A stretch of DNA of 63,955 nucleotides, counting the filler, from Craspedostauros australis (lineage: Eukaryota), in the NCBI GenBank assembly GCA_030167865.1. It is 7 parts of 7 records of this genome, joined end to end, with 100 filler letters (N's around TTAATTAATTAA, not from the genome) between each part and the next. Parts side by side here need not be neighbours in the genome. Positions count along the whole stretch, not along the records: positions 1 to 26,783 come from JALAGF010005337.1; 6 more parts are not named here. One strand, given 5' to 3'. This document shows, one piece after another, positions 523 through 46,609 of this stretch (positions are counted from its first letter, which is position 1; each line of letters opens with the position of its first letter). The position numbers were made by a program, and so were the translations under genes. Below the pieces are notes generated by a model. It did no database searches. It was not told where the DNA came from and saw nothing but the letters and a program-made list of their open reading frames with translations.

Positions 523-1434
523 ATGGTCAAGGTGAGTCTCCCTGAACGATGTTGGTGAAGCCGCGTTGGTTGGTCAGTGTTGCGGACAAGTGTAGTACGA
601 GCAGGACCAATGACTCCGCATGTGGAAGCAGAATACAACGAAACACAATGGCGGTGCGAGGATCTACACGAATCAACACAGATCATCCTGCTTCGCTTTG
701 TTGTGATACTGCCCATCATCGTCTCACCTTGCCTCCATGATTTCTGCAACAACCCGCAGATCGTCCTCATCAGCACATCGGCTCCCATCCTGAAGGAGAC
801 CGAAGAAACCGGCGTCTGGATGGAAGAGATCGCCGCACCGTACTACAAATTCGTCGAGGCCGGATACGAGGTCACCATCGCTTCGCCTGCTGGCGGTGCC
901 ATCCCCGTCGATGCCGGCAGTCTCAGTGATCCCTTCTTCACCGATGCCTCCAAGAAATTCCTGCACGACGCCACCGCCATGGGCAAGTTCATGCATTCCA
1001 AGAAGCTTGAGACGCTCCAATTCCCATCCGACTACGATGCCATCTACATGCCGGGCGGGCACGGATGCTGCGTGGATTTCATCGACAATGCGACCCTCAA
1101 ATCGGCCATCGAGACCATGTACAATGCCGGCAAGATCGTCGCGACGGTCTGTCACGGACCCATCTGCTTGTGCGATTGCGAGACGCCGGATGGAAAGCCG
1201 TTCGTGCAGGGCAAGACGGTGACTGGATTTGCGGATTCGGAAGAAGAGGCCGTGCAGAAGGTCGAGCTGGTGCCGTACCTCATCGAGACCAGGTTCAAGG
1301 AGCAGGGCGCCAACTATGAAAAGGCCGATGACTGGAATTCCAAGGTCTGCATTGACGGCAACCTCATCACCGGACAGAATCCTCAATCGTCGGAGGCTGC
1401 CGCGGAAGCCGTTATCAAGGCGCTGGCTGCCTAG
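523..1434 (+). CDS. DJ-1/PfpI family protein (Hsp31/glyoxalase III-like); exons 523-531 and 760-1434
   Basis: ATG GTC AAG|GTGAGT...CCGCAG|ATC GTC CTC gives MVKIVLISTS. Motifs GVWMEEIAAPY, PGGHG, ATVCHGP (nucleophile Cys-His) and ITGQNPQS. Confidence 0.93.
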
Positions 1435-1782
1435 AGATAGCAAGTGCACTACCGTAGCAATTGAGCTCTGCCAAACACTGTTGTGCTCCGCTGCATTTCA
1501 ATCACTGCAGAAGAGTTGCTGTTTTGCTCGAGGTACTCCACACAACGGATGGCGACCATTAACAGTCACAATGCAAACAGATGTACTGTTGTGCCAAGCT
1601 GCCGTTTTCGCGCAAATTGAGCAATGATGCATCTTGCGGTCGAAGCTCCAGACCAAACATTTCACCACAGGTGGAGGAGCACCATTCTCTATAATACATG
1701 GGCGTTTATGTCTTTAATCGCTTTCCATTCATTTCTATAGCATGCCTGGTCGTGTGCTGCCGTTGGCTTGATCCTGTCCTCC

Positions 1783-4700
1783 TCATTTGTCCTTCTTGCC
1801 ACTCTCGTTCACTGGGCTTGGTGCGACCTGCGCTCTATTTGCCCGTCCCATCCGGAACCCTGGTGCGGCGCTGCGCAACCTTGGAGTTTGAGGCTTGGCG
1901 CCGAAGCTGAAAATGTTCGATTTGCCGCCTTCATCTCCTTTCTTGCCCGCCGCCCCGCCTTTGGAGCCCTTTGGCGTCTTCACATTCGAAATCCCAATGT
2001 CGGACAGTTCGATGGATTCCTCGGTGGCCGCGTTCTTCTGCAACTTCTGGGTTTCCTGGATGTCGGATGACAGGGTCACCTCGATGGAACTTTCGACCGG
2101 CGACATCACGGAGAGTTTCGTGCCAGGTGCGCCACCTTCGGCTTCATCATATGAGGTGCTTGGGCTCTTCATCGGTTCTTCATCACCCATCCCCAACTCG
2201 ACCATGTTGTTGCTGCCTTCGCTGCGGACGACCCTCTTGCCAGCCGCATCGTCGTCTGCGATTTTCAGCAAATCGTCGATCCCTGCCTGCAAAGTCTTGT
2301 CGGTCTCGGCCAGGAATTCACGCATGGAGTCTGGAACGAAGTCCTCGCTGTCCGAGCTGGGTTGCAACTCAACGTTCATCTCGACATCGGCGACGCCGGC
2401 TTGCTTGTTTTCGGATTGCTCCGCCTCTCTTGTTGCATTGTTGGCGACCGCGGGAGCGTTCGTTGTCTCCATCTCCTGCTTTTTGCTGCCATTGCTGTAG
2501 CTCCTGCTTGGAACATTGCCGATGAAGTCTTCGGGACAGGGGGGCTGGCGCTTGCGTGGCTTTGCGGAGGCCTCCTGCTGGACCTTCCGTGCCTTCTCCG
2601 CAAGTGTGGATTGCGGTTGATCACCGGGGGATGCGCTGGTGTTCTTGTCCTGTTCGGAAGGTGGAGCAACTTGGTTGGAAACGGCGTTGTCCAGTGGTTG
2701 GGCTTTTCGTTCATCGACGAGCGCGGGTTCGTCTTCATCAACATCCATCTTGTCCTTCGCTCCGTCACCTCCATGAGCAAGGCCTTCCACTGTTGGCAAC
2801 GTCGCTGCCAACGTGGCCTCCAACTCATCGATGGCAGGTGCCATCACGGCATCGTATTCCTCACTTTCAAATGAACTTTTGTCGGGTTTGGCCGTTAGTG
2901 CCATGACGTCTTCAATTTGGTCCACCATCACCCGGTCGGCGTCCTCGATGAAACTCCTCAGTGATTCTGGAATGTAATCATCGTCGTCTTCATTCTCGCC
3001 CTCATCGTCATGCGCAGTAGTCTTATCGCTGGAGTCGACGTTGTGGCGAATGACATCCTTCCCTTCGTCGGCATCTTCCTCCGCGAACGCACTTTCGCTT
3101 GTGACAACTTCGATCCCAGCCTCCGTCTTCGGAGACGTGGCCTTGCCGGTGGTCGGGGTGCCCTTACCTTGATTGTTTATGAGTTCAGTCTCTGTCGAAT
3201 GCGATTTGATGTTCGATGCAACCTGCCCCGTGTGCTCGTCGGACTGCGACGGCGATTCTTGATCCTTGGTGGTGGCAACAGCGACGGCGGCCTCATCACC
3301 TTTGCTCCTTTGTCGTTGCTCGTCTTGTGTCTTCGCGGCGATTCCGGAATCATCCGTGTAGCTTGGCATGATCGGGAAAGTCCTCCCCTCACGCATGGTG
3401 TGCTCGTGCTCTGTGCCAGCGCACAGTACCGAATCGAACTTATCCGACATGAGCTGGTTGGCCGCCTTGAGGAATCCCTTCAGCGCGCCCGGGACGAAGG
3501 CGTCGTCTTCGCTCACATACGTCTCGATATCGCGTGTCGATCCAGACCAGACGGAGAAGTCTTCGGCTTCATCCTGATCTCGTCGTCCTCCACGCCGCAG
3601 CGATTCGAGATTGTTCTTGAGGTGCTGCTGCAACGGTAGATCGTGCAATTTGTCCGAGCTCGCAGATTCAGATGAAGGTAGTTGTATGGCGTCACTGTTC
3701 CCCTCATCGGCTGCCATGCGCTTGGTGGCCTGTTCCACCTGCGCTTTGATGCGAGCAAGCGCTGCGCTTTCGGCCGCCCGGCGTTCCTCATCCACATCTT
3801 CCGACGTGCTGGGCTGGTCTTGAAGATCTTGGCTGCTTTGGGATTCGATTGTCACTGCATTACTCTCGGGCGATTTCACGTCTTGCTGTTTGATTCCACC
3901 ATGCTGGTCAACTGCAGGAGCCGAAATAGAAGCAAGCGCAGGAGCAGGAGCAGCGGCAACTTGCGCGTAGGACATGCCGCTGCTTGCACGCACTTTACTG
4001 CTTGTCGCCCTGGTCGGTGCAGTTGCATTCGAAGCCGACGTAGCGGCTGAAGCAGCAGCGGGGATGACATCTGAGTTTTCGAATGGCTTCTCCTTTGATT
4101 CTGATTTCTCTGCGATTTCGTCAACCGGCTTGGAGACTGGAGGGGTGATGACGACCGTTGGAGCAGCTGGTTTGGACTCCGTCGGTTTGTTCAGAGCGGC
4201 ATCGTCAATGCTGAATGAGACCAGATTCTCCAACTCCGTTGCGCTGTTCAACAGCTCTTGCTGCAGTATGTCCAATCCTGCAGTCGGATCGTCTACCTCC
4301 GATTCTTCGTTGCCGATGTTGGGCACAGGGGCAGCTTGCACCTTCGGAGGGTTCTCCGCTTTCTTCAGGATACCATCCAGACTCTTTGGCTTCTGCGGTG
4401 TCGTATCGCCGCCGCTGCCATCGCCACGTGATCGCAGTATGGCATCAGCTTGCATCTTGATGTCTTCCTGTTGCATGAGCTTGGAGAGCTCGTCCTCCGC
4501 AGCACGGCAGGCCTTCTCCTCGGCCTCGACGGTGGCTTCTTGCTCTTCCCGCAGCTGTCGCTCATGTTCTTCTTTCATCTTGCGCAGTTCCACCTGAGCG
4601 TGCATCTTGGCTGTCTCCTCAAGTTTGATACGCTCTGCTTCTTTCTTGGCCCTTTCATGCTCCTCCTTCATTGCACGTGCCTTGGCTTCTTCTTCCGCCT

Positions 4701-7700
4701 TGAGCTTGCCTTGCAATTGAGCCTCTGCCTCCAGCTTCTTCAATATCTGTTCCTCCTCCTCCTTTACCTTGCGCTCCAGCTCGAGTTGTCGCTTCTGCTC
4801 TGCCTCGGCCGCTTGTCGCTTGGCCTCCTCCAAAACCGCGGCCGCAGCCACCGCCTTCTTTTGCGCGCTCTGCATCTCGGCTTGCCGCCGTTCTTCTCGC
4901 ATTTCCTCCGCCAGCCTCTCCATTTCCGCGGTCTTTGCTTCGGCTTCCTTCTTCCTTGCTGCCTTTTCTACTTCGCGCTTTCGTGACTCCTCGGCAAGTC
5001 GGGCTTCTTCCGCGGCTCTGGCTTCGGCCTCCCTTTGCTTCTCGATGCGCGTTTGGGCAAGGCGCTCCGTCTTCATGGCGACGCGAGCTGCCTCCGTCGC
5101 CTTCGCGCGTTCTCTTGCATCCTCAGTATTCTTGGCGAGCAGCTGCGCACGTTTCTCCCGCTCGGCCTTCTTCCTTTTCATCTCCCGGGCCTTCTCCACG
5201 AGCTTCTTGCGCTCTTCCCGCTGCCGTGCCTCGTCACGCTTGGTCTTGGCCGCTGCTTCCTTCTCTGCCTCCTGCCGTTTCCTTTCGGCCGCTGCCTTTT
5301 TCGTGCGTTCTTCTCGCTTGATGCGTTTCTCGGCAGCCTCCTGTCGGATCAGCATGAGTTTCTTCTCCTGCGCCGATGTCGGCGTATCCAGCTTTGCGCT
5401 TCGTGTGGAGGAAGGACGGCTGTCTCCGCTGCCTGGGACTCGACGGGGAGACGAAGCACGCGCCGTTTGCGATTTCGTGGAATCTTGAGCGGGGTCACCA
5501 CCAGCTGACATGTTCGTTTGAATTGGATCGGGCCTTGCCCTCGTCGATCCTAGTGGTGGGGCCATCGGCGACCTCGACCTGTCACGATACGGGGACGAAT
5601 CTGACGAACGCAGCGATTTCTCGAAGCTCAATGTGCGCGCTCGAGAACCCAAGCCATCCGCTTCGTATGGTGACAGCCTGGATTTGGTGGGACTCATGTA
5701 CCTTGGTGGTGATGGCGATTGCGAAGGTTCAGCAGCCGACGACGACTGCTTGGTTGCATCGGTTTTTGGCTCACCGGAGGTTGGCTCCGTCTGTTTGGAC
5801 GAGGACGGTTGCTCATCTTGGGGCTTGAGTTCCTCTGCGGGTGTCACTTTTGCCGATGGATCATCCTCATGAGGCTTCTCGCTGGAAATGACATGGTCTT
5901 CATTCACAATTTCAGCGGGCACGGTTGCAGTCGACATTGCAGCGTCGATTGCAGGCTCCGTCGTGGCAGACGCCTTCGCAGAAGCGGTCTCGCTTTCAGT
6001 AGGCGAATGTTGTGCGGGTTCCTTGGTGTCTGTGGCACGCCGGAACTTGGGAACCGGTGGTTTGCGCTTGCTGCGCGCAGCTGGATCCGGTTGGGTAGGC
6101 GTGACCTTCTTGGGACGCTGTCCTGTGTGACGCGGCACAGGTGCTTTCCTTCGGTTGGCACCCATGGGGAGTCGCGACGAGGATGATGCTGCCGTGCTTC
6201 GCTTGGCGTTGACGGAGCGTTTCTTGGGTGCAGTGACCTTCTTTCCGGGCGTGGACAAATCCAGCCGCTGTTTGACCTGCGTTAGATGCCTGCGTCGGAA
6301 TGGCTCGGCGTTTTCGGGACCGATGGAGGCTTCGCCGATGGCAGGTGAATCCATGCCGTTGACGGATGATGCCATGGGACTGTCGGATACAGTCTTCGCG
6401 CGTGGGTGGCCTGTGGATTTGGACTTGATCTCGATGGGGACCGGACGAGGACTGCTGCTGTCGCCGCGTTGCTCACGAGATGCCGATGATGGTGCAAATC
6501 GAGGGCGGATGATTCTGGAAGGAAAGGTGGAGCCGACGGATGGCATTGGCTGTCCGGACCTTGTCGGACTGGGCTGTCTGCCGGATTTGGATTTGATCTG
6601 CGACATCGTCGCCGTGGTCTTCTTCTTTTCCAGCTCCTGCCGACGCACGTGCACTTGCTCCTGATGAAACAGCCGTTCCTGCCTGGCGGCCTCCGCTGTA
6701 TCGCGTTGCATGCGCTGCTTTTCCTCCGCGGAGGGCGATGCCACAATTCCCATTGCCTCTTGCACCGCAGCGTTGTCCGCACATGGATGTGGATACGACG
6801 AGGATTGGTACAGTGGAAAGTAGACGCCGATTTTGCCCGCGTCTCCAATTTTGCTCTCATCTTCTGGCGCTGCTGCTTCCTCGCGTTCGATGTCCGCCTG
6901 AATATCCAGACAAAGCACCGCGAGTCCGCCGAGCCCTCCGAATACCGAATACGGTCGATTGGGAATCTCGAGGAGCGAAGACAGATGATCGGCGGCATAA
7001 TGTAGGTAGTACATGGCCCGTTGCTTCCAGAGCATGGCATCGTCCATCTGGTTGGCTTGAAGGACGTGCGACAAGGCGAGGAAGACGTAGGCGTTGCCCG
7101 TGATGCCGTATCCCAGACCGATGCCCTTCGTGAGCAAGCCACGTTTCCATACCACAGCATGCGCGAGTTTGGCGGCCTGCTGGATGTACTCCGTCTGGCA
7201 CGACTCGTACACCTGCGAGGCTCGCAGCAGCAGCAAGCAATAGCCCGGTGCACCGTGGGACCATTCCACCAGGCGATCCGGGACTGTGGAGTTGAGGGTC
7301 GGTTTCAAGTTCCCGGACTCCTTGTAGACCTGGGTGGACAAGGAGTCGATGGCAAGCCGGATCATGTCGAACGCTCGTGGCAGCTGCTTGTCGAGCTCCT
7401 TCCATTCGTCGCTGGTCATTCCCAGGATCGTGTGTAGGATGCCGACGGTGCCGTGCACTGTGCCGAGGAAGAACTTGGGCGTGTTGCGTGGCGAGGTGAG
7501 GCCAGCGGTGGGCGTGGAACCTTCCCACACCAACTCGACGCTGGATGATTTGGATCGTGCGGTGGCAAAGCCAGTCGTGAGCAAATATCTGGCCTGCGCC
7601 ACAAAGAATGCGGTTCCGTATGCTGGATCCTGCAGTTCCTGGCGCAGCAAGAGGATGGCCTGCAGAGCGCCAGCACGTCCCGACAGCATGTCGTTCGGTG

Positions 7701-8673
7701 GCATCGATGACTGTCGCTGCCGCGATGACATCGATGATGATGACCCTTTCCTGGAGGATGGTATTGGGCAGGATGCCTCGAGCATGTTCAAGACTTCGTC
7801 CGCAACGCTTCGCGCGCGGTCCACCTTCCTCAAACGCACGTAGCAGGCAACCATCATACATCTGGGACCGACCCATTCCGATTGGAGCAAGCTGACGTGA
7901 TGCCTGAGGCGCTTGTTGTTGCTCCCGCTCGATGACCGGCGTTTGGTGCTGTTGGTGGCATTCGTGTTGTGCGTGGCGGTCGAGGAGACGGAAGAAGCTG
8001 ATGATTTGGTGGCAGACCGGCCTCGCAGCATCGGCGGCGGAGACGCGAGGTTCCTCGCCGTGCTGGGCTGGAAGATGAGGGCGTTGGATTGGCAGAAGTC
8101 CGCCGCGTTGCGCGCCGATTCCAGAGCCTGCTGGATGTACTTCTTGTGATTGAGACTGGCGCCATCCTTGAGCATCAAGCGATCGCCCAGCTTCATGGTG
8201 AGGAAGCTGGTGATGCCGATCCCGCCATGGTAGATGTCTCCGAAGTGATTGCCGGCGGCGTGAACCCTGGCAGTGCACTGCGTGTAGTATTCCCTGGCCA
8301 TGTTGGTCCACTTCTCCTTGTTGCGCGACATGTCCTGCAGGTAGTGCTTCTTCTGGAAGGCGTCCAGATCGAGTTCCGGTGGCAGCGGAAAGAACCGCTC
8401 GCTGGGTGGCCTCGCCAACGAGGATCCTTGCGTGACGATGGCCCCTCCGGCTGTGGCAACCGACAGCGTGGACGATGACCCCGATCTGCTGTGGCCATGA
8501 CCTCGCTTGGATCGCAACTCCGCCTGGGCCCGCGACGATGTCCGAGGTCTCGATCCGACCATCATCTTGGATACGACAACACCGCCTGCGTCTGCGGCGT
8601 TTGGATGGGAGGGAATTCGAGTGGGAGAGGCGCGAAAGTGTGCTCTGCTGATGATCTTCTGTGCTTGTCTCAC
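1783..8673 (-). CDS. Giant protein: N-terminal LanC-like (LanCL) domain with degenerate Zn site, Ser/Pro-rich linker, long E/K/R/A coiled coil, acidic low-complexity tail
   Basis: 2296-codon uninterrupted ORF. LanCL motifs ERFFPLP, DMLSGRAG, GTVHGTVGI, EWSHGAPG, WKRGLLTKGIGLGYGITGNAY, RPYSVFGG. Exact start codon uncertain. Confidence 0.85.
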   Translation of the reverse strand: MRQAQKIISRAHFRASPTRIPSHPNAADAGGVVVSKMMVGSRPRTSSRAQAELRSKRGHGHSRSGSSSTLSVATAGGAIVTQGSSLARPPSERFFPLPPELDLDAFQKKHYLQDMSRNKEKWTNMAREYYTQCTARVHAAGNHFGDIYHGGIGITSFLTMKLGDRLMLKDGASLNHKKYIQQALESARNAADFCQSNALIFQPSTARNLASPPPMLRGRSATKSSASSVSSTATHNTNATNSTKRRSSSGSNNKRLRHHVSLLQSEWVGPRCMMVACYVRLRKVDRARSVADEVLNMLEASCPIPSSRKGSSSSMSSRQRQSSMPPNDMLSGRAGALQAILLLRQELQDPAYGTAFFVAQARYLLTTGFATARSKSSSVELVWEGSTPTAGLTSPRNTPKFFLGTVHGTVGILHTILGMTSDEWKELDKQLPRAFDMIRLAIDSLSTQVYKESGNLKPTLNSTVPDRLVEWSHGAPGYCLLLLRASQVYESCQTEYIQQAAKLAHAVVWKRGLLTKGIGLGYGITGNAYVFLALSHVLQANQMDDAMLWKQRAMYYLHYAADHLSSLLEIPNRPYSVFGGLGGLAVLCLDIQADIEREEAAAPEDESKIGDAGKIGVYFPLYQSSSYPHPCADNAAVQEAMGIVASPSAEEKQRMQRDTAEAARQERLFHQEQVHVRRQELEKKKTTATMSQIKSKSGRQPSPTRSGQPMPSVGSTFPSRIIRPRFAPSSASREQRGDSSSPRPVPIEIKSKSTGHPRAKTVSDSPMASSVNGMDSPAIGEASIGPENAEPFRRRHLTQVKQRLDLSTPGKKVTAPKKRSVNAKRSTAASSSSRLPMGANRRKAPVPRHTGQRPKKVTPTQPDPAARSKRKPPVPKFRRATDTKEPAQHSPTESETASAKASATTEPAIDAAMSTATVPAEIVNEDHVISSEKPHEDDPSAKVTPAEELKPQDEQPSSSKQTEPTSGEPKTDATKQSSSAAEPSQSPSPPRYMSPTKSRLSPYEADGLGSRARTLSFEKSLRSSDSSPYRDRSRSPMAPPLGSTRARPDPIQTNMSAGGDPAQDSTKSQTARASSPRRVPGSGDSRPSSTRSAKLDTPTSAQEKKLMLIRQEAAEKRIKREERTKKAAAERKRQEAEKEAAAKTKRDEARQREERKKLVEKAREMKRKKAEREKRAQLLAKNTEDARERAKATEAARVAMKTERLAQTRIEKQREAEARAAEEARLAEESRKREVEKAARKKEAEAKTAEMERLAEEMREERRQAEMQSAQKKAVAAAAVLEEAKRQAAEAEQKRQLELERKVKEEEEQILKKLEAEAQLQGKLKAEEEAKARAMKEEHERAKKEAERIKLEETAKMHAQVELRKMKEEHERQLREEQEATVEAEEKACRAAEDELSKLMQQEDIKMQADAILRSRGDGSGGDTTPQKPKSLDGILKKAENPPKVQAAPVPNIGNEESEVDDPTAGLDILQQELLNSATELENLVSFSIDDAALNKPTESKPAAPTVVITPPVSKPVDEIAEKSESKEKPFENSDVIPAAASAATSASNATAPTRATSSKVRASSGMSYAQVAAAPAPALASISAPAVDQHGGIKQQDVKSPESNAVTIESQSSQDLQDQPSTSEDVDEERRAAESAALARIKAQVEQATKRMAADEGNSDAIQLPSSESASSDKLHDLPLQQHLKNNLESLRRGGRRDQDEAEDFSVWSGSTRDIETYVSEDDAFVPGALKGFLKAANQLMSDKFDSVLCAGTEHEHTMREGRTFPIMPSYTDDSGIAAKTQDEQRQRSKGDEAAVAVATTKDQESPSQSDEHTGQVASNIKSHSTETELINNQGKGTPTTGKATSPKTEAGIEVVTSESAFAEEDADEGKDVIRHNVDSSDKTTAHDDEGENEDDDDYIPESLRSFIEDADRVMVDQIEDVMALTAKPDKSSFESEEYDAVMAPAIDELEATLAATLPTVEGLAHGGDGAKDKMDVDEDEPALVDERKAQPLDNAVSNQVAPPSEQDKNTSASPGDQPQSTLAEKARKVQQEASAKPRKRQPPCPEDFIGNVPSRSYSNGSKKQEMETTNAPAVANNATREAEQSENKQAGVADVEMNVELQPSSDSEDFVPDSMREFLAETDKTLQAGIDDLLKIADDDAAGKRVVRSEGSNNMVELGMGDEEPMKSPSTSYDEAEGGAPGTKLSVMSPVESSIEVTLSSDIQETQKLQKNAATEESIELSDIGISNVKTPKGSKGGAAGKKGDEGGKSNIFSFGAKPQTPRLRSAAPGFRMGRANRAQVAPSPVNESGKKDK

Positions 8674-9583
8674 TCAACTCAACTCGACTCAACTCAACTC
8701 TGATCTGCTCTGTTCGCTCGTTCAAGCCAACTGGGATGACTGAATTTGTTGAAAGTCACGGATGGGAGGAATGGTGAGGACTTCGACAGCACCTCGATGG
8801 ATCGATCCGTTCTCTGCGCCTGCCGAGAATCTGATGCTGCTGCCCAGATGGAATGCAAGTGTGCTCCGCTGCGGATGGACGCAAGATGGCTGCGATACTC
8901 CACAAGATGCCTTCTCCGACTGTCGAGATGGCCGAAGCTGAAGCCTCTCCTGAGTCACGAACGACGGCGGAATTGGATTTTGGACAGAGATCTTTGCGAA
9001 CAGAGATGGTCCTCTGTTCCGGTGGACGGCCAGCTGCGTTGTTTCTATTGTCGATAACGATGTCGATGATGATGCGATGCCGATGATCTGGTGGTCGTCC
9101 AATGTGCTCCTTCACCTGCCTTGCTCTCTTGTGGAGTGCTCTTGCCACCTGCTCTATTATAAGTCGTTGCATGCAACGTGTGGTTCCTCCACGCGTACGC
9201 TGTGATACTCCGCGTGAGTGTTTGGCACACAGAGAGTAATTGTGACTTCAACAGATTTGTGTTGAATCGAGGTGCGCCGATTATTGTTGGATGCAGATGC
9301 GCCTGTGCGAGCTTTTCGGTTTTGAACGAGCGCCAATTTTCGATCTGTCACAGCTAATATCTTCGAAGGCGGGATCGGGAGAAATATTTCGCACCGAACA
9401 CTGGCGCGGATGGTCGATCGTATTCGAACCGTTCGAGTTCAACTTAACGGTCACTTTTCGTTTGGTGCGACTGGTTTGGATCGTGTGGAGATGGTTGGTC
9501 GTAGGATAATCCATCGAGACTAGTCATACGAGAAGAACCAGACTCTACAATGTTCAACTCGTTGTATTGGTAGATATGAGAAC

Positions 9584-12500
9584 TTACGATTTGTTGTTGC
9601 CGCTGTACGCAATGTCCGTGTCCTTCTTGCGCCAATTCTGACCTCGGTGACGACCTCCACCGGACATCTGGCCATCGATGGCGGCAGCTGACGAGGCATA
9701 CAGCTTCTGCGAGCACAGCGGGGTCAGCGCCGCGAATGCTCGGAAGCGGAAGAACGAGGCCAGCTCCTTGCGTGGTGGCAGCTTCAGCTCGGACCGCGCC
9801 GCCAGCGACGAGCCGACGCCGATCTTGTACCCGTACATGTTGTCCCAGTTCGCGGACATCTTCAGCCCGATCCAGCTGTCGACGGGGCCGCGGATTGGCA
9901 GGCAGCTCAGCAGGTGCCTCGCACCCTCCAAGCTCACCACGTATCCCGTCAGGTACCAGACGGAGGTCGGGATCCCAAGTTGCTCGGAGTACGGCACGAT
10001 CGGCGCCGTCTTGGGGCGTCCGTAGCCTAGCGAGCAGAAGTGGAAATCTCGCGGCAGCTCCCGCAGCAGCTCTTGCAGTCGGTCGGTGAATCGGTCCACC
10101 ATCATGGCGTCGTCCTCCAAAATCACGCACACTGGCTGCGGCGCCATCGCTTCGTTTGCGAAGAACGTGGCCTGTCCGCTGGCGTATCCACCAATTCCCA
10201 GTTCACCTGCGATCTTGCGCCGGAGCCTCGTTGTGTCGGCCGTTGCAGCATTGCTACCACGGGCCTCGCTGCCTTCTTTCTCCCCATGTTCCTTCGTAGA
10301 ATCGGTTTCCACGAGCAGCGCTTCCAAACATGCTTGCGCGCTCTGCCACGACTTCAGGTGCGACAGAGCGCATGCTTTCTCCGTCGGGCTGATGCGCACC
10401 TCGTGATCCGTGGCGGGAGCATTCGTATCGAACGCTCGCAAATCGTTGGGCCGCCACTGGGGACGGACTAAGGCGTTCAAGCCGGACAGAGATCCGATCA
10501 GATTCACCATCCTCATCTCGGCTTGTACCATCGAACCTCGACCATCGACGGCGTAGGCTTGCACGGAAGGAACGACACTATCCACGGAGGAGCCGGACGC
10601 ATCGGCCAGTGCTCTCGTCACCATCACCTTCTCTTGCATTGCTTGCGTCATGAATAATGCCATGCGATCCTTCCTCCGTTCCAAATTGATCACGCGAACG
10701 GTCGGTCGGTCCATCAGCAGGGCCATGGTGGATGCCCAACCTCGATTCGACGCAAGATTAGCGGGTGCAATTGCGTTGTCCAACGACAAAGCATGCTGAA
10801 CGATGCGTGACAGATTCTCACCATCCGAGCAGCTTGCGCAGCACCATGCAGCCCAGCACAACAGTCCAAGTCGGGCGGTCGATTCATCAGGCCCCTTCCT
10901 TTGTGTCATTTGAATCGCGAATGTGGAGAGCCGCGTGATGATGCTTTGCTTCGACGATGGGCACAAATGATTGGCCATTGTGATGGATGCATCGCCATTT
11001 GTTGTGTACCGGTAGTATGTCTCCATCTGCCGGATGTGCAGCTGCTGTATGGCATTGGAACATGCGAGCAGGGCCGCCATGCGCTTATTGTCACCGACGT
11101 CGTCCTTCGACTCTGCGAAGATGGATTCCATCACTTCTTGAATCCATCCGAGGTTGCCGCTCAGGATGTATGCAAGTTGCAACGTCCACGAAAGCATGCC
11201 ATCGCTTTGCCTCGAATCTACAGCGTGCAGGGTGGACGAAGCGATAGAAACGATCTCCTTTGCGAGGACACTGGTCGGTCGTCTTTCCTGTGCAGGAAAT
11301 AGCCACGGAAGTTTGTGTTGCAAACGTTCCAAGGCTGCAAGTTCGATGCACGCGAGGACGCGAACACGCTCGTTGCCGTGATGCTGCCGAACTCTGTTGA
11401 TCTCCGCGACGGTTTCCGTGGCAAGGACGAGCATCCGGACAGTAGCTTCTGGCGGCGACGTCGACGTCGACTTGGGAGTGTTGTGTGTCAGAGTTGCACG
11501 GAACCAATCGTCTCCTCTTGATACCATTGGTGGGGACAGCATGGCTTCCAAAATGCAAAAGCTCATCACAGGCGGCCTTCTGCAGCATGCTGGGATGTCT
11601 TCCGTTGTGGTGGAATCTTCGGGGTTGAAGGATGTCGCATTCGCACTGATGTATTCCAGTACGAGCCTTGCTGCCTGGTCGTAATCGCCGCGCTGCAGGT
11701 ACATTTTAATGACCAAATGCACCAAAATGCACCGCTCCACCAGCGCTGCGAGCCGCGCTGCGTACTTCACGGGGATGACTTCCAGCCGTGAACCAGGCCC
11801 ATCCTTGTCTTGGTCTGACTTCGATTGGGCTGACGGTGATTCTGGACCATTGGTATCGCCATTATTGCCAATCGAGTCTTCCGTTGCTGTGCCTGATTTG
11901 TCGAAATCATCAAATTGGGTCGAGGCATTGCTGGCGCGATCGTGCGATGGCCAAACGTGCACAATCTCGCCATGCAATGACGACACGAGCTCCTGCGCGA
12001 GGTGGGAGCAACCGTGATCAGCACGGCCAGGTTGTGATTGAGCTTGCGCCCATTCCATGATGGACGGCGGTTCCAAGTCCTTCACATCCTGGTCCATTTC
12101 GAGCGTCAGTTCCCATATGTGGGTGGGTTGATCCGATGCGGTTGGGGGTTTGAGCGTATCCAAGAAGGAGATGACATGGAAGATGTCATCGCTGATCTGC
12201 TTGGTGGGGTGCCGAGGCATTCTGGCGTTCTTCGGTTGGGCTGCATCCCAGAAACAGGGGAAGAAGTCTTTGCTCATGAAGGGAAAGTACCGAAACTGAT
12301 CTCTTTGCACGAGACCTTTGCTTGCAGCGTGTGTGTTCGATCGTTGCTCGCTCTCTGCCCTGTCATTATTTTCCATGCAGACGATATCCTTGATCCTTGT
12401 TGCATCCTTTAGCAGACGCAGCATGTCGCCCCAAAGTTGCAGCTTCGGAAGAGGGCGCCACAAATGGGTTGGTTGGTGCAAGATAGCATTGTTGCCGTCG

Positions 12501-13600
12501 TTGATACCGTTGTTGCTATCGATTTCGGCATGACCAGTGTTTTGAATCGAATCTTGATTGGTGTGCTGCTGGGTGGAGTTCGCGGGATGTTGGGATGCAG
12601 CATTCACGTCCGCGTCTGGCTTTGCGACGATCTCCATCTTCTCCAATTTCCAGAGAGCAACTCCCAAACGCTGCAATGCTTCCACTGATCTTTGTTGCAG
12701 AATGCGGTCGAGGCTGTTCTCAGCCTTTGATGTCTCTGTGCCTTTGCCGGCATCAACCAGAGCTGTTGGCTCGGCTGGAAGCTTGCGTTTGCGGTTGCTG
12801 GAATGATGCGATTTACATGAGTCGTATGGTTGATGCGGAGTTCCATCCAATCTGCCATGATTTGCACCAGCGCCAGTATCGGCGCCGTCGTCGTCGCTAT
12901 CATCGTCGGAAGAGAATTGAAACATGTGGTCCTCGATGGAGCCAGCGGGTCGATTGTTCTGCTTCGATCCTGCCAGATTCGATGCTTTTCGCTTCGCTCC
13001 CGCTTGCTTTGGGCCGGGCTCGCCTTCACCTGCGTTGGCTTCTTCAGTCCTCTTGGCCTTGCTTTCCTTTTCTATTTGCAGATCCACCTCATCCATGTTT
13101 GCTTCGTGACCATCAGCATCACCATTTGTGCCAATATCATCATCATCACCATCATCATCTGATGAGAAAGATAGGCAAAACTCATTCGAATCGTTGTTGC
13201 GCGTGCCTCTGGGCGCCGTGAACTCATTATGAACTTTGGGAGCTGGGACAGTGGCGCTCGATCGATCGCGAAGAGCTGCTGCAGCGCTAGCAGTGACTGA
13301 CTGTCCATTCGCTGCACTTGGATTGCTCTCCAGCGCCTTGACTCTGACCTTGCATTCCTCCAGCTCCGCCTGGTAGCCTCTGGCACGGTCTTTCCACTTC
13401 TGCACGTCGTAGTCCAAGTTCTCCTGCAGGGCCTGGAAGTACTTGAGCACGGACTTGTTGGATTTCAGAAGCTTCACAAGCGAAGCAGGCGGCGGCGGCG
13501 GTGGCTTTGGCTTCTTCGTCGTGCTCTGTTTCGTGCCGCTCCCAATACTGTTCCGTGGGCGCTTCCTCGAACGCCGCGCTGCTGTGGCTGGCGGCGCCAT
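9584..13600 (-). CDS. Large protein with C-terminal glycosyltransferase family 25 domain and N-terminal basic stretch plus coiled coil
   Basis: 1338-aa ORF. GT25 motifs VINLERRKDR, ACALSHLKSW, VILEDDA, GYVVSLEGARHLL, PVDSW. Confidence 0.82.
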   Translation of the reverse strand: MAPPATAARRSRKRPRNSIGSGTKQSTTKKPKPPPPPPASLVKLLKSNKSVLKYFQALQENLDYDVQKWKDRARGYQAELEECKVRVKALESNPSAANGQSVTASAAAALRDRSSATVPAPKVHNEFTAPRGTRNNDSNEFCLSFSSDDDGDDDDIGTNGDADGHEANMDEVDLQIEKESKAKRTEEANAGEGEPGPKQAGAKRKASNLAGSKQNNRPAGSIEDHMFQFSSDDDSDDDGADTGAGANHGRLDGTPHQPYDSCKSHHSSNRKRKLPAEPTALVDAGKGTETSKAENSLDRILQQRSVEALQRLGVALWKLEKMEIVAKPDADVNAASQHPANSTQQHTNQDSIQNTGHAEIDSNNGINDGNNAILHQPTHLWRPLPKLQLWGDMLRLLKDATRIKDIVCMENNDRAESEQRSNTHAASKGLVQRDQFRYFPFMSKDFFPCFWDAAQPKNARMPRHPTKQISDDIFHVISFLDTLKPPTASDQPTHIWELTLEMDQDVKDLEPPSIMEWAQAQSQPGRADHGCSHLAQELVSSLHGEIVHVWPSHDRASNASTQFDDFDKSGTATEDSIGNNGDTNGPESPSAQSKSDQDKDGPGSRLEVIPVKYAARLAALVERCILVHLVIKMYLQRGDYDQAARLVLEYISANATSFNPEDSTTTEDIPACCRRPPVMSFCILEAMLSPPMVSRGDDWFRATLTHNTPKSTSTSPPEATVRMLVLATETVAEINRVRQHHGNERVRVLACIELAALERLQHKLPWLFPAQERRPTSVLAKEIVSIASSTLHAVDSRQSDGMLSWTLQLAYILSGNLGWIQEVMESIFAESKDDVGDNKRMAALLACSNAIQQLHIRQMETYYRYTTNGDASITMANHLCPSSKQSIITRLSTFAIQMTQRKGPDESTARLGLLCWAAWCCASCSDGENLSRIVQHALSLDNAIAPANLASNRGWASTMALLMDRPTVRVINLERRKDRMALFMTQAMQEKVMVTRALADASGSSVDSVVPSVQAYAVDGRGSMVQAEMRMVNLIGSLSGLNALVRPQWRPNDLRAFDTNAPATDHEVRISPTEKACALSHLKSWQSAQACLEALLVETDSTKEHGEKEGSEARGSNAATADTTRLRRKIAGELGIGGYASGQATFFANEAMAPQPVCVILEDDAMMVDRFTDRLQELLRELPRDFHFCSLGYGRPKTAPIVPYSEQLGIPTSVWYLTGYVVSLEGARHLLSCLPIRGPVDSWIGLKMSANWDNMYGYKIGVGSSLAARSELKLPPRKELASFFRFRAFAALTPLCSQKLYASSAAAIDGQMSGGGRHRGQNWRKKDTDIAYSGNNKS

Positions 13601-14238
13601 GCTGCACCAGAGACGTCGATCTCGATCTCAATGTTCCTGCGAGTGCACCGTACGAGGAGAGTGGGACAACCTGATGATCTGCTTGTGTTGATGAACTTGA
13701 CATGATGGGAAGCGACGTGTTGTTTCCGCTTGAATCCTTGTGCGGGTGCAATGGGTGGTCACGATGGCGTCGTTGATGTCTGCTTCTGCCAATAAAATAT
13801 CAATTTGCGAAATTGTTGGAGAAATTGATGTGTTCGGATTGAACAGCCTGAACTGCCAGATGGACTCGTACGACTAAAGAGTCTGACAAAAAGGCTATTC
13901 TGACGATCGTTGGAGAAGATCTTTATGATTCAGGAACCTTCAGGAACCTTCATGGGTCGACGAGAACATGTTGCGATTCCGCCTTCTGTGGGCGGATTCT
14001 GATGCGGCAGTACCATCAATCGTGGAATCTTACTGGAGAGATGAGACTTTGCGATCGCAACTCCAATGCATTTGTACGGTGGTTTACGACGGAACCATGC
14101 GAGGGGTGGCTATGATCGGGCATGTTGAGCATCACTATCGCCACCTTTCACATCACATGAGTGCATCTCTCATAAAGAAAACGAAGAGCAAGAGCAACAA
14201 ACCCAATCGCAACAGCAACAACCACAGCCCAAAATCTC

Positions 14239-15390
14239 ATGAACATCGGACGGCTCTCCATCACGCTCCTTGGTCTCATGAAATTCGCCCGACTCTCTCG
14301 CTCTGTCTCTTCATTTGCATTCGTTCATCGCTCATCCAGCCACATTTCACTCTCACTCCTTTCGTCTGCGAGTTTCGCATCACACATCTCTCACCTTCCA
14401 GCAGTGCTTTCGACTTCCCCCACAAGCTTCAACGCAAACAAGAACATCATCAACAGCAACCGCATTAGCGCCAACATCAGCTCCAGAGCCATGTCAAGCA
14501 CAACAAATCCAGCGCCCGACGCCGAAAAAGATTCTTGGAGGATCGAGGCCACTGGGTACAAGAAGCACGCCCAACGTTTCACCGGGAAGTTCGCGACGAG
14601 CGCTGTCCAAGAGCTGGTCGGTGCTCGGTTGAAGAGCAAGGTGCCTTTCCCGAAGGACGAGATCCGCTGCCTCGACATCGCCGCCGGGACTGGGGCGGCG
14701 ACTCTTGCCACCGTCGATGCGATCCGCATGCATGACGGGTTCAAGGATCGTCCCATCCGGCTCACGGCGACCGACCTGAGCGCCGGCATGCTGGAGCAGC
14801 TCGATGCCCAGTTGCCTGAGCGGGTCGATGCCAAATACAAGGACGTCGAGGTGAAGACGTTGGTGCAGGACATGACCGATCTCAAGGACATCCCGGATGG
14901 ATCCATCGATATCTGCACCATGGTGTACGGCATCATGTTCCCCGATGATCCCATCAAGGCATTGAAGGAGGTCAAGCGCGTGCTGGACCCCAACGGTGGC
15001 GTGGCCACCATCGTGTCTCACTCCTGGAACACCTTCATCCAGCTCTTCCAAGAAGCCACCTTCGACCAAGGAAAGATCGACAACATGGCCGACTACGACC
15101 TCCCCTACACTGACATGGGCCACGAGCATCACCTCCGCATCGCCGCCGGCACTGCAGGCTTCACCAAGATGCGCGTGTCGTACGTCCAGCACCACGGGGT
15201 GGAGATCCCCACGGCCTTCCTTGCCCACAGCATGAACAACAATCCTGGGCTTGCCAAAATCCCTCGTTTGGACCAGGCCAAGTTTGAGGCCTTCCTTATG
15301 AAGCGCAGCGCCGGTACCAACAAAGATGGCCCGTTCGTGCTCTGCGGTGGTACAGCTCTCTGCCTCCAACTTGGCTTGGAGAATGAGTAG
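14239..15390 (+). CDS. Class I SAM-dependent methyltransferase with Ser-rich N-terminal extension (possible organelle targeting)
   Basis: Motif I CLDIAAGTG, motif II TATDLSAGML, and MFPDDPIKALKEVKRVLDPNGG. Alternative starts at 14278 or 14491. Confidence 0.88.
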   Translation: MNIGRLSITLLGLMKFARLSRSVSSFAFVHRSSSHISLSLLSSASFASHISHLPAVLSTSPTSFNANKNIINSNRISANISSRAMSSTTNPAPDAEKDSWRIEATGYKKHAQRFTGKFATSAVQELVGARLKSKVPFPKDEIRCLDIAAGTGAATLATVDAIRMHDGFKDRPIRLTATDLSAGMLEQLDAQLPERVDAKYKDVEVKTLVQDMTDLKDIPDGSIDICTMVYGIMFPDDPIKALKEVKRVLDPNGGVATIVSHSWNTFIQLFQEATFDQGKIDNMADYDLPYTDMGHEHHLRIAAGTAGFTKMRVSYVQHHGVEIPTAFLAHSMNNNPGLAKIPRLDQAKFEAFLMKRSAGTNKDGPFVLCGGTALCLQLGLENE

Positions 15391-16589: not shown

Positions 16590-19070
16590 TTATATGACAA
16601 CGGCCTGCGGCGATGCCGGTGGCATCTGAGACGGGAAGCTCTGGACGTCCATGGGGTTGTTGGGATCCTCGTCATTGTCGCTGGCGTCGTAGGTTGACAT
16701 GTGCTGCAGCAACGCGTCGACGTAGTCTCCGCAGGTGTCCGGGAATTGTTCCTTAGCCAGTCGCAGTATCGACTCCGTCTGCGATCGTGGCAGTTGGGGG
16801 AGGTTGGCTCGTGGTTCGCAGTTGGTCATGGCAAAGAGGGCATGGCAGCCGGCTTGCTGCACGGACTCCGACGACGGATGGGAGGACAGTCCGTTGATGA
16901 TGGCGGTGACGCCCGACACCGATGCCACCACGGTCGCGCGGTCCGGACCTCCGGTCTCGACGATGGCCGCGACTGCCTCGCATGCGTGGTACTGGACGGT
17001 GGCATCGCCGATGTGGGCTTGCATGGCACCGATCATGGCGGTGACGGCACCGGATGCCACCATGCTGACCTCGCGACAGCCATCGGCGGGGGCCATGCTC
17101 TGCAAGGCCAGGCAAGCCTTCTCCTGCACGATCATCTCGTTGGGATGCGCCTTCATGGCGTTGACGACCGCCGCCACGGATGTCATGGCGAGAAGCTGGA
17201 CGCCCTCGATGTTGTTGTTCTTGAGGCAGTTCTGCGCCATGCGCGAGATGGCGACGGAGCCAAGCATCTGCACGCCAGCGTCCTCCTCGTGCGCCCACAT
17301 GCTCATAACAACCTCGGAGACGTCCGCGGATGCACTCTGCACGAGCATGATAGCGTCGTACTCTTCATCTTCGACAACGCCATCTGCTTCGTCCGGCGAG
17401 CTGTCCGCCTCGTTGCCTTCCGTCATTCCGATGGCGCTGCGGAGTGCCGGATGACGCTGCAGATCGATGTGCTGCACCGCGGCTTCGTAGGCGAGGTAAA
17501 GGGACTTGATGCCTCCTCCGATCCATGGTTTGCCCACATCCACCGCCAGGGAGAGCGGGTACTGGCCGTTGCCGTCGGGCATGCTGGCGGCCTCCGGGAA
17601 TTTGTAGAGCAGCTCGTCGATGACGTACTTTGTGTAGAACGATGGGTAGGACGCGCGTTGGTTGGTTGCAGAGCCTTGTTCGCTGCGGGGCGAGAAAGCG
17701 GAGGCACCGCCCACCTTGGTCGCGGCCGCGTAATGCAGCGGCAGGTTTCCGTATCCATCGACGCGCGCCATGTCCTGGGCGTTGGTTTCGACGATGTACC
17801 TGAGGAGATCGGGCGGCGTCTCGACCTGAACCGCCCTGTGGACGATGCCCGACTGAGCATCGGGTGCCTGCTGTTGCTGCTGCGCGTCGTTCTCCATCGA
17901 GCTGTTTGTGTTGGAGACGGCGCCATTGATGGCACCGGTCGATGCGTTGGTGGGCCCCGTGAGAAGAATCTCGATGCACTTCCACGTGTTGCCCGCCGCC
18001 GTCTTGTAGCGACGCCGGTGCTCCACCACCATGGGTCTTGAATTGTCGCCCGCGAAGAATTTCTCTGAAATGTCGAACTGCCTAGTGAAGCGACGGTAGA
18101 GCAGGCCGAGCGGCTTGTCTCCGTCGGAGGCGTTGCCCATGCCGGCATGGTAGGGGTACGCACGATGCACCACCTCCACGTAGTCCACGGAGGGCCCGAC
18201 CGGATCCATGTCATCGGGCAGCACCTGCAGCACGCGGTACAGGGGCGTGCAGGGTCCGCTGGCGTCGCTGCTCTCGTAGCGGATGTTTGATTTGGAGAGG
18301 TAGGCTTGCGCAGTTTCGTAGTCACTGTCAATCAAGTGACGCACGACCGCAGCACGTTGCTTCCAGCTGAAAGTGTATCTGGAAGCGCCCTCCAATGCCG
18401 CGCGGCCTGCGGCCTTCGGTGCCGTCTCCTCCTTCTTCTCCTCGTGCAGCGGCGCCATGTTGGAACCTCCGTTGCCGCTGCTGGCGCTGAAGTGCGTCGT
18501 CGGCGAGATGGCGTAATGCAAGGGAAGATGGCCACCGGCGTCCACCTTGGCGAGCGACTCCCTGTGCACCGCGATGAGCGAGCGGATGATCTGGAACAGG
18601 GTGGACTCGATGGACGAGGCGGAGCTGTTGCTGCCCGTGGACGTGGGGGTGGCATTGGGCGTTCCCACCACCTCCGAATCCAGCAACCGGCAGGCCAGGT
18701 GCAAGGGCGTCGATTGAGTGGTGGGGTTGCAGAACGCCGCCGCCGACGGCTCCTGCTGCACGTGCTCTAGAGCCTGGCGCAGGTACATCTGTCGCTCCTG
18801 GTGGTTGTGGGAGCAGGCATGCGCCTTGATGAGCAGCTTGTAGAGGCGCTCTGGCTTGCTGGCATGGATGGTGGCCGAAATGGCGGAGGTGTCATCGTCA
18901 TTGCCGCGACTCTGGTGCTGCTTGGCATTCTTCTGCTTCTGCTGCAGCTCTCGATCCCTGTCCTGGCGCTGTTGGACGGAGGATGATGGCGAGATCGGCT
19001 TTGACTGAGGCTTGCGTCCCGAGTTGTCATACGTCGCCGTCTCGAGCTCCTTGCTGCTGTTGCATCCCAT
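16590..19070 (-). CDS. Ankyrin-like repeat plus C-terminal armadillo-repeat protein, probably N-acylated
   Basis: ANK-like TPLHLAC, GHLPLHYA, GNLPLHYA, GQYPLSLA. ARM-like VVNAMKAHPNEMIVQEKACLALQ, AMQAHIGDATVQYHAC. MGCNSSK N-terminus at 19070. Confidence 0.85.
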   Translation of the reverse strand: MGCNSSKELETATYDNSGRKPQSKPISPSSSVQQRQDRDRELQQKQKNAKQHQSRGNDDDTSAISATIHASKPERLYKLLIKAHACSHNHQERQMYLRQALEHVQQEPSAAAFCNPTTQSTPLHLACRLLDSEVVGTPNATPTSTGSNSSASSIESTLFQIIRSLIAVHRESLAKVDAGGHLPLHYAISPTTHFSASSGNGGSNMAPLHEEKKEETAPKAAGRAALEGASRYTFSWKQRAAVVRHLIDSDYETAQAYLSKSNIRYESSDASGPCTPLYRVLQVLPDDMDPVGPSVDYVEVVHRAYPYHAGMGNASDGDKPLGLLYRRFTRQFDISEKFFAGDNSRPMVVEHRRRYKTAAGNTWKCIEILLTGPTNASTGAINGAVSNTNSSMENDAQQQQQAPDAQSGIVHRAVQVETPPDLLRYIVETNAQDMARVDGYGNLPLHYAAATKVGGASAFSPRSEQGSATNQRASYPSFYTKYVIDELLYKFPEAASMPDGNGQYPLSLAVDVGKPWIGGGIKSLYLAYEAAVQHIDLQRHPALRSAIGMTEGNEADSSPDEADGVVEDEEYDAIMLVQSASADVSEVVMSMWAHEEDAGVQMLGSVAISRMAQNCLKNNNIEGVQLLAMTSVAAVVNAMKAHPNEMIVQEKACLALQSMAPADGCREVSMVASGAVTAMIGAMQAHIGDATVQYHACEAVAAIVETGGPDRATVVASVSGVTAIINGLSSHPSSESVQQAGCHALFAMTNCEPRANLPQLPRSQTESILRLAKEQFPDTCGDYVDALLQHMSTYDASDNDEDPNNPMDVQSFPSQMPPASPQAVVI

Positions 19071-26783: not shown

Positions 26784-26827
26784 NNNNNNNNNNNNNNNNN
26801 NNNNNNNNNNNNNNNNNNNNNNNNNNN

Positions 26828-26839: not shown

Positions 26840-26883
26840 NNNNNNNNNNNNNNNNNNNNNNNNNNNNNNNNNNNNNNNNNNNN

Positions 26884-28422: not shown

Positions 28423-28664
28423 AATGAGTCGAGTTGAACAAAGAAGATCTGACAACGTGCGTGAAGAGATGAACAAATGACACCATCCAGGCGCATGCAC
28501 AGTACCATCTCATCCTCCACTCGAAGGAAGACACAACAACAGAGACGAGGATGGTGGATAGACACCGTCCTTGAGCAAGGATCCATCCGATCGATAGTCG
28601 TACTTACTCTCTCTCGCTCTCTCTCTCTCGAGGAATAACGCAGCGTGCACACTCAATCGTCATC

Positions 28665-45806: not shown

Positions 45807-46609
45807 TGTTCTTTGTGATGCGTTCTGCTGAACCGAGATACTCGTAGAATACTAATATGTTGGGAGTACCGTGTTCTTACTGATGTGTCTGGACTTGTGT
45901 CTGGACTTGTGCGACGAAGAGTAGCGATGATTGTGCGTTGGTGCTCTCTAGCTCGTATTATGAATAAAATGATGATAATAACACCAAAGTTGATGTTGAT
46001 GTTGATGCCGATGTGCGATGTTGTGGTTGGATCTCCTTGGCGTGTTCGATGGATTTGGATGAGGTGATTTGTTTGTTTGGTTGGTGGTCGCGGAGTTTCC
46101 CTTTTGGCCTGGCATAGGGACTTTGGTACATTGTGTACGTGGAAATAGGTATCTAAAATGGCGAATGTAACAACACTTTAGCCAGTATTTAACTCATATT
46201 GTCTGAATGATATTTTTGAAATAGCTTGAAATACGAATAACCGGGGTGAAGAGATGGCGGCAAAGACAACGAGAACGTGCGCTGCAAACACAAGCACAAA
46301 CAAAGACACACAAGAGCGAACACGGGACGACTACAAACGCACAACTCCAACCAACACACAGCACAAGACAAGGCAAGGAAACTACGCGAACCCACATCAA
46401 CCACAGCTCAACCACAGAGCTCAAACAGAAGCAACAGAAGCAACGGCGTCGACGAACGTTGGGGCGGTTCTTCCAGCCGCAAGCAACATCCACTCACTTT
46501 CGCGCGAAGCTGGTTGATCCCATCGCAGCATCAGCATCAGCATCAGCATCAGCTACAACAAACAAACAATAGAGTAGACTGCCATAGATCGCACGAAAGC
46601 CCCAGCAAC

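Follow-up and report, generated by a model that had tools for sequence, protein, structure and literature searches.

A LanC-like domain without zinc ligands at the head of a long predicted protein in the diatom Craspedostauros australis

The open reading frame and its LanC-like head

We analyzed a 63,955-nucleotide stretch of the Craspedostauros australis genome (GenBank assembly GCA_030167865.1), referred to here as the window, and found on its minus strand one long open reading frame (ORF) whose product carries a domain of the LanC-like family near its N terminus. Behind this head, a disordered linker leads to a long charged helix and then to a tail with three copies of an unannotated motif. 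The ORF spans positions 1783 to 8673, comprises 2,296 codons with the stop codon at 1783 to 1785, and codes for the whole protein. As listed, it begins with GTG and is preceded, immediately before 8673, by an in-frame stop. The first ATG, at 8566 to 8568 (codon 36), is the probable start. A preliminary description of this DNA had given the protein 2,296 amino acids (aa); that figure holds for the ORF, but translation from the ATG yields 2,261 aa. About 55 Ser/Arg/Gly-rich residues separate the ATG from the LanC-like domain. Residues are numbered here by codon of the ORF.

The frame had been described as intact for 6.9 kb, and this was upheld: none of the 2,296 codons is a stop, whereas the other two minus-strand frames contain 44 and 57 stops over the same span. 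GC content at third codon positions (GC3) is 0.56 to 0.75 within the ORF versus 0.41 to 0.50 in its flanks, and it is raised along the head, the helix, and the tail. In the linker (aa 624 to 1104), GC content is nearly equal at all three codon positions, and the coding signal is weak. This feature would suit an explanation in which the long ORF is an artifact, either a pseudogene or a chance read-through of at least two genes or exons, with head and tail never forming one protein. The stop counts and the raised GC3 of the other three parts argue against such an artifact, as do three independent database proteins, 2,033 to 2,369 aa long, whose parts are arranged in this order (see below), and we consider it highly improbable. 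No tandem DNA repeats were found in the ORF. A second stop-free frame of 632 codons (6857 to 8755, minus strand) runs across the LanC-like domain in another reading frame of that strand and is probably a by-product of GC-rich coding sequence.

The LanC-like domain, delimited with Pfam, a profile of our own, and an AlphaFold2 (AF2) model, lies at positions 6805 to 8400 on the minus strand (aa 92 to 623). The family assignment made in the preliminary description was borne out by the Pfam profile LANC_like (PF05147), which matched with an E value of 1e-23 and 83.9 bits against a cutoff of 23.2; it is the sole Pfam family in the 2,296 aa. Our own LanC-like profile, built from 52 relatives and 425 positions long, matched aa 92 to 623 over profile positions 5 to 418. 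When PDB sequences were searched with phmmer, the head matched LanCL2 (6wq1; E value, 1.6e-24), Arabidopsis GCR2 (3t33; 2.7e-21), and human LanCL1 (8d0v, 3e6u, and 8czk; about 4e-19). Eight motifs that had been located in this domain beforehand were all recovered at matching positions on the minus strand: ERFFPLP (8380 to 8400), DMLSGRAG (7669 to 7692), GTVHG (7450 to 7464), WSHGAPG (7243 to 7263), WKRGLLTKG (7123 to 7149), GLGYG (7105 to 7119), GNAY (7087 to 7098), and RPYS (6946 to 6957).

The head was modeled with AF2 over aa 88 to 605 from a 52-row alignment. The model has a mean predicted local distance difference test score (pLDDT) of 85.4 and a predicted template modeling score (pTM) of 0.87. 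Values of pLDDT below 50 occur solely in a Ser/Thr/Asn-rich low-complexity insert that is predicted to be disordered (7924 to 8058, minus strand; aa 206 to 250, model residues 119 to 163). The predicted structure forms the double-layered alpha/alpha barrel of seven helix pairs. A Foldseek search with the model ranked LanCL2, LanCL1, and GCR2 at the top, with E values of 1e-17 to 1e-14. In VIA-align comparisons with these three proteins, 374 to 386 residues were aligned at a root mean square deviation (rmsd) of 2.2 to 2.5 Å and 24 to 26% identity, with Z scores of 43.0 for GCR2 (rmsd of 2.2 Å over 374 residues), 42.1 for LanCL2, and about 41 for LanCL1. Because these scores of 41 to 43 compare with only 27 to 28 for the bacterial proteins NisC and MadC and 23.8 for the class III enzyme ThurKC, the model identifies the head as a eukaryotic-type LanCL barrel. 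The scaffold had been reported as retained, and the Pfam match and the predicted fold both agree.

The C. australis domain thus shares with LanCL1 (3e6u, 8czk, and 8d0v), LanCL2 (6wq1), and GCR2 (3t33) the Pfam family and an alpha/alpha-barrel fold across the whole domain. It also keeps the N-terminal Arg, the His of GxxHG, the His of WxHG, the Lys of KG, and GNAY. In contrast to those proteins, it lacks the zinc ligands, contains low-complexity inserts, and belongs to a protein of about 2,260 aa rather than a chain of 396 to 409 residues. The head is a member of the LanC-like family by sequence and fold that fails the defining feature of the zinc-dependent enzymes.

Loss of the zinc site and the clade that shares it

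According to PMC9934072, the zinc ligands of LanCL1 are Cys276, Cys322, and His323. In the phmmer alignments to 6wq1, 3t33, 8d0v, and 3e6u, WCHGAPG stands opposite WSHGAPG of C. australis, and G[IL]CHG stands opposite GLGYG. Numbering on 8d0v took into account a 20-residue chain offset, which was verified by the C264A change visible in the alignment. The position of Cys276 is occupied by Ser472 (TCC; 7258 to 7260, minus strand), and those of Cys322 and His323 are occupied by Gly521 and Tyr522 (GGA TAC; 7108 to 7113, minus strand). The alignments to LanCL1, LanCL2, and GCR2 therefore confirm that all three ligands are lost, as the preliminary description had claimed. Since these codons are at least four base changes away from the canonical Cys/Cys-His site, a single read error is excluded as the cause.

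The same source names His219 of LanCL1 as the catalytic acid and His277 as a contact of peptide and enolate, and it lists Arg4, Lys317, His274, His323, Arg364, Asp367, and Glu374 as glutathione contacts (PMC9934072). The alignment places His407 (7453 to 7455, minus strand) at the acid position and His473 (7255 to 7257, minus strand) at the peptide-contacting position, so both histidines are kept. Among the glutathione contacts, Arg93 (Arg4) and Lys516 (Lys317) are retained. His274 is replaced by Glu470, Arg364 by Glu569, Asp367 by Asn572, and Glu374 by Gly579, and the combined zinc ligand and contact His323 is replaced by Tyr522. Apart from that shared ligand, four of the seven contacts are thus changed in the head; the Arg364 column is variable even in canonical domains, where 16 of 94 have Arg. 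Judged from sequence, the basis on which pocket geometry and any new metal site were also assessed, the metal site for thiol activation has been lost, and so has the gamma-Glu end of the glutathione pocket. The loss could have been offset by other Cys or His residues rebuilding the site, a possibility raised beforehand, and no alternative conserved set able to do so was found among the four closest proteins. Cys133 is conserved among the closest relatives, yet it also occurs in canonical domains.

Relatives were collected by an exhaustive HMMER search with aa 36 to 640 against 1.84 billion representatives, which returned 1,282 matches at an E value of 1e-3 or lower; the best 150 of the 1,282 were taken. 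In all, 155 proteins gave 180 profile domain matches, of which 129 covered at least 300 of the 425 positions and were kept, and 51 partial matches were dropped. The 129 full-length domains comprise 94 with Cys/Cys/His, 33 without the site, one with Cys/Cys/Tyr, and one gapped at the site. The 33 zinc-less domains sit in 26 proteins, seven of which give two domains each; the protein P0002 has three LanC-like stretches. The usual replacements are Ala, Ser, or Thr at the first ligand position, Ala, Ser, or Met at the second, and Arg or Lys at the third. In a quick IQ-TREE phylogeny (LG+G4) computed with the three ligand columns removed, the 33 zinc-less domains formed one clade nested among the canonical domains, with a Shimodaira-Hasegawa-like approximate likelihood ratio test (SH-aLRT) value of 96. 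Because they form a single clade within the canonical domains, the tree points to one old loss of the zinc site and not to a private mutation of C. australis.

The named members of this clade are all Bacillariaceae diatoms, namely, Nitzschia inconspicua, Cylindrotheca fusiformis, Cylindrotheca closterium, Pseudo-nitzschia multistriata, and a Bacillariaceae metagenome-assembled genome (MAG); the majority of members are metagenome or assembly proteins without a name, and the statement covers the named ones only. The nearest neighbors of the C. australis head in the tree are P0069, P0060, and P0098 (SH-aLRT, 92). P0098 is a 590-aa partial cluster-mate of the C. closterium protein P0156, which, like the MAG protein P0160, is not itself a row of the tree. 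Head identity between C. australis and its closest relatives is about 30 to 32%. In these relatives, the first ligand position is Trp, Ser, or Ala, the third is Phe or Lys, and the acid-His position is Arg (P0060 and P0069) or Met (P0156 and P0160). A metagenome contig scan with the head yielded no close orthologue and only two weak loci (31 to 35% identity over short stretches), and a word-indexed search with the head returned P0002 as the sole match.

Within the clade, positions that serve LanCL catalysis are relaxed. The His219 position is His in 14 of 33 clade domains versus 93 of 94 canonical ones, and Lys317 is kept in 15 of 33 versus 93 of 94. Asp367 is kept in none of the 33, compared with 82 of 94 canonical domains. 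His277, which contacts the peptide, persists in 26 of 33. Four residues absent from canonical domains, Gly151, Gly418, Trp424, and Pro432, are each conserved in 28 to 30 of the 33. Because of this conservation, the barrel of the clade appears to be still under constraint, though apparently not for thiol addition.

These patterns bear on the idea that the barrel is a small-molecule receptor, in which the rebuilt pocket would hold a metabolite or a lipid in place of glutathione and its occupancy would be relayed to partners by the tail. The pocket residues have been replaced rather than deleted, and the barrel is predicted with confidence to be folded, both of which agree with a receptor. Ligand-binding roles have also been proposed for LanCL2 and GCR2, and they are disputed. 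The pocket positions vary widely over the clade, however, unlike what one conserved ligand would suggest, and we regard a receptor function as doubtful.

Several proteins outside the immediate neighborhood of the C. australis head are of interest in their own right. Tandem LanC-like proteins of diatoms, such as the Nitzschia inconspicua "lanthionine synthetase C-like protein" (KAG7339083.1; P0004) and Cylindrotheca fusiformis P0008, resemble the C. australis protein in belonging to the same zinc-less clade, in their length, and in their disordered linkers. Unlike it, they lack the D[FY]VPxSLRxFL motif and contain two or three LanC-like domains in each chain, whereas the C. australis protein has one domain. 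A six-frame scan found no second LanC-like domain anywhere in the window; with none present, and with only a weak Glyco_transf_25 match in the ORF upstream, a split tandem-LanC gene was ruled out. P0002 (1,519 aa) and P0003 (961 aa) are both assigned to one 10,381-base contig and jointly contain five zinc-less LanC-like stretches; they may be neighbors, or one split gene, forming a tandem array of zinc-less barrels. Two otherwise canonical LanC-like proteins carry single changes at the site: P0009 reads GLFHG (second Cys to Phe), and P0032 reads GLCYG (His to Tyr).

Linker, charged helix, and tail motifs

The head is followed by a disordered linker rich in Ser, Pro, Thr, Arg, and Lys, as judged by composition per 100-aa block (5362 to 6804, minus strand; aa 624 to 1104), so that about 480 disordered residues separate it from the charged helix. 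The helix-type segment, rich in Glu, Ala, Lys, and Arg and ER/K-like, occupies 4474 to 5361 on the minus strand (aa 1105 to 1400; 296 residues). Glu makes up 24% of it, Ala 20%, Lys 15%, and Arg 13%; Pro is absent, and Gly occurs once. Two crude scores of our own were applied to this segment. In the best heptad register, hydrophobic occupancy of the a and d positions was 0.265, compared with 0.292 ± 0.018 in shuffled sequences. Pairs of opposite charge at i/i+3 and i/i+4 reached 0.287, compared with 0.181 ± 0.017 in shuffles. On these scores, the segment resembles an ER/K single alpha-helix more closely than it does a heptad coiled coil. The preliminary description had the head running into a coiled coil of several hundred residues; a long charged helical segment is indeed present, but it scores as ER/K-like and lies about 480 aa away from the head.

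ER/K single alpha-helix tethers such as the "coil" of INCENP offer a likeness, in that a long Glu/Lys/Arg-rich helix separates a binding module from further sites of interaction (PMC4571873 and PMC5812594). The INCENP segment also provides a precedent for a single alpha-helix that was first labeled a coiled coil (PMC4571873). The two helices have no sequence relationship, and the C. australis segment is likened to that of INCENP by composition alone.

The last 600 or so residues contain three copies of an unannotated motif of the D[FY]VPxSLRxFL type, made up of an acidic run, [FY][VI]P, and an amphipathic helix. Copy 1 (3379 to 3534, minus strand; aa 1714 to 1765) has FVP, copy 2 (2857 to 3012, minus strand; aa 1888 to 1939) has YIP, and copy 3 (2221 to 2376, minus strand; aa 2100 to 2151) has FVP. 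The tail region from aa 1714 to 2151 was modeled by AF2 as a single sequence, since the full-length tail alignment with three long relatives was too scrambled. This model is weak overall (pLDDT, 45; pTM, 0.19), and its most confident parts are the motif helices at aa 1729 to 1763 (pLDDT, 51 to 63), 1903 to 1928 (61 to 78), and 2115 to 2143 (77 to 84). A complex prediction for the head and motif copy 2 scored 0.00 and, run without controls, speaks neither for nor against binding.

Searches of known families returned nothing for these regions. Pfam gave no match at E values up to 5 for three pieces of linker and tail downstream of the head. The three motif copies, run as a profile against the PDB, retrieved chance-level matches only (E value of at least 0.22). 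A word-indexed search with aa 1700 to 2296 gave none at an E value of 0.01 or lower among 8,000 candidates of 1,262 to 4,018 aa, and the tail had no usable match in the ESM Atlas.

The architecture had not been recognized at the outset. Three uncharacterized database proteins, P0060, P0156, and P0160, share it: in each, a disordered linker and then a long charged helix lead from a zinc-less head to between one and three D[FY]VPxSLRxFL copies, in the same order as in C. australis. P0060, an ENA protein of 2,033 aa, has its zinc-less head at residues 22 to 420, a disordered region, a highly charged stretch at about 800 to 1400, and three motif copies. The third of these, which lies outside the five copies from which our motif profile was built, matched that profile with an E value of 8e-15. 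P0156 (Cylindrotheca closterium CAJ1935898.1; 2,148 aa) combines the head with a helix of Ala/Glu/Lys repeats and a single clear copy of the motif (6e-9). P0160 (hypothetical protein SGBAC_005814 from the Bacillariaceae sp. MAG; 2,369 aa) has the head and two motif copies (1e-12 and 7e-10). Copies that did not enter the profile were thus recovered with E values from 8e-15 to 6e-9. In public records, related proteins carry no description beyond "hypothetical," "unnamed," or "lanthionine synthetase C-like." A search for diatom orthologues with the same substitutions and tail had been suggested; zinc-less heads in the same layout do occur in diatom proteins, but the replacement residues differ and the low head identity noted above applies. 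The three proteins also differ from that of C. australis in the residue at the acid-His position and in a second repeat, LPGSGxKVR[LM]TR[SA]AxLK, which is present in three to five copies in their disordered linkers; a strict pattern search for LPGSGxKVRLTRxAxLK found none in the C. australis protein. Because the same order of parts occurs in four independent sequences, the ORF most probably represents one real gene and is very unlikely to reflect either read-through by chance or the fusion of gene models.

Proposed role of the head and the surrounding genes

In the reading that we favor, to which we assign a probability of roughly 55%, the gene product is a cytosolic or nuclear protein of about 2,260 aa from a raphid pennate (Bacillariaceae-type) diatom, in which a LanCL head unable to perform LanCL chemistry acts as a binding module carried by a long tether or scaffold. 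The reading builds on the domain and its predicted fold, on the substituted residues, on the clade, and on the conservation of the architecture. With the zinc site for thiol activation lost and the gamma-Glu end of the pocket rebuilt, the head would be without LanCL chemistry. It would most likely serve instead as a noncatalytic peptide- or protein-binding module, with His473 as a retained contact. The disordered linker of about 480 aa and the charged single helix of about 296 aa, presumably monomeric, would together form a long tether. As a spacer, the helix would measure about 44 nm if fully helical (296 residues at 1.5 Å per residue). The three tail motif copies would probably dock partner proteins.

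Three points weigh against this reading. First, the class III LanKC cyclase ThurKC has Ser726, Phe770, and Asp771 in place of the ligands and is active (PMC10604976). Because class III lanthipeptide synthetases cyclize without those ligands, their loss is no proof of a pseudoenzyme. Second, the C. australis head keeps both active-site histidines, Lys516, and Arg93, and also GLL..KG and GNAY, which are lost in most clade members; since all of these are retained, it is the most enzyme-like head of its clade. Third, the single-helix assignment comes from crude scores of our own and not from a validated predictor. The preliminary description had proposed a noncatalytic LanCL reused as a binding head. 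The loss of the zinc ligands does not by itself establish this, but the proposal gains from the replacement of four of the seven glutathione contacts and from the Arg or Met found at the acid-His position in proteins of the same layout.

The first two points would be accommodated by a head that is still an enzyme and works independently of metal, adding some other thiol or nucleophile to dehydroamino acids or catalyzing a related reaction, while the tail brings substrates. In such an enzyme, His407 could supply the acid and His473 the contact to enolate and peptide, and the Ser at the first ligand position is matched in ThurKC. Class III LanKC cyclases (ThurKC [8sam and 8sao], SalKC, and PneKC) likewise have a LanC fold without zinc ligands, with Ser first (PMC10604976). 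They are bacterial, are fused to lyase and Ser/Thr-kinase domains, and act on leader-bearing peptides, and their structural Z scores to the head are 19 to 24. The C. australis domain, in contrast, is derived from eukaryotic LanCL, and Pfam detected neither a kinase nor a lyase domain in its protein. The C. australis protein is not a class III synthetase. The absence of those partner domains also argues against a metal-free enzyme, as do a model much nearer to LanCL than to ThurKC, the origin of the loss within the eukaryotic LanCL tree, the retention of the acid His in fewer than half of the clade members, and its replacement in the closest proteins with the same layout. On balance, we regard a metal-independent enzyme, the main alternative to a binding module, as unlikely though not implausible.

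LanCL proteins occur throughout eukaryotes. Structural work has established their chemistry, a zinc-activated addition of glutathione to dehydroamino acids (PMC9934072). A clade that has given up the zinc site and kept the barrel, duplicated it in tandem, and mounted it on giant tethers would be a natural experiment on what the LanCL barrel does beyond catalysis. It would be moderately surprising to LanCL specialists, and it would add to diatom cell biology an uncharacterized family of putative scaffold proteins and an unannotated tail motif. No literature on diatom LanC-like proteins or LanCL pseudoenzymes was found in a search whose scope excluded most subscription journals. As a speculation that we hold to be quite unlikely in this specific form, the zinc-less Bacillariaceae clade might consist of enzyme-derived "reader" modules for modified protein sites, such as dehydroamino acids or their parent phospho-sites; the giant proteins would then be tethers in which the ER/K helix keeps clients, carried by the D[FY]VPxSLRxFL helices, some 40 nm away from the bound target.

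Other genes in the window fit a eukaryotic nuclear origin of the DNA and not an organellar or bacterial one. A DJ-1/PfpI-family ORF (559 to 1434, plus strand; Pfam E value, 7e-18) is convergent with the LanC-like gene, with about 350 bases between the two stop codons. A public contig of 1,764 bases covers window positions 1500 to 2486, which include the last 234 codons of the LanC-like gene, and continues over the DJ-1/PfpI ORF; it has no bearing on transcription, on the codons of the zinc site, or on whether the transcript is a single one. Directly upstream of the LanC-like gene and on the same strand is an ORF of 1,347 codons (9584 to 13627, minus strand) that has a weak and short Glyco_transf_25 match (E value of 2e-7 over about 25 residues) and is otherwise unannotated. 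Pfam further identified an S-adenosylmethionine (SAM) methyltransferase (14176 to 15390, plus strand), an ankyrin/ZER1-like protein (16590 to 19403, minus strand), a pentatricopeptide repeat (PPR) protein (28575 to 30806, plus strand), Rcd1/CNOT9 (35991 to 37079, plus strand; E value, 1.5e-119), and a protein kinase (44067 to 45851, minus strand). Between positions 21507 and 63363, the window contains 31 runs of N totaling 1,769 bases, none of them in the LanC-like gene. Several occur as pairs of 44-N runs 12 bases apart, such as 26784 to 26827 with 26840 to 26883, and the runs look like masking or scaffold gaps.

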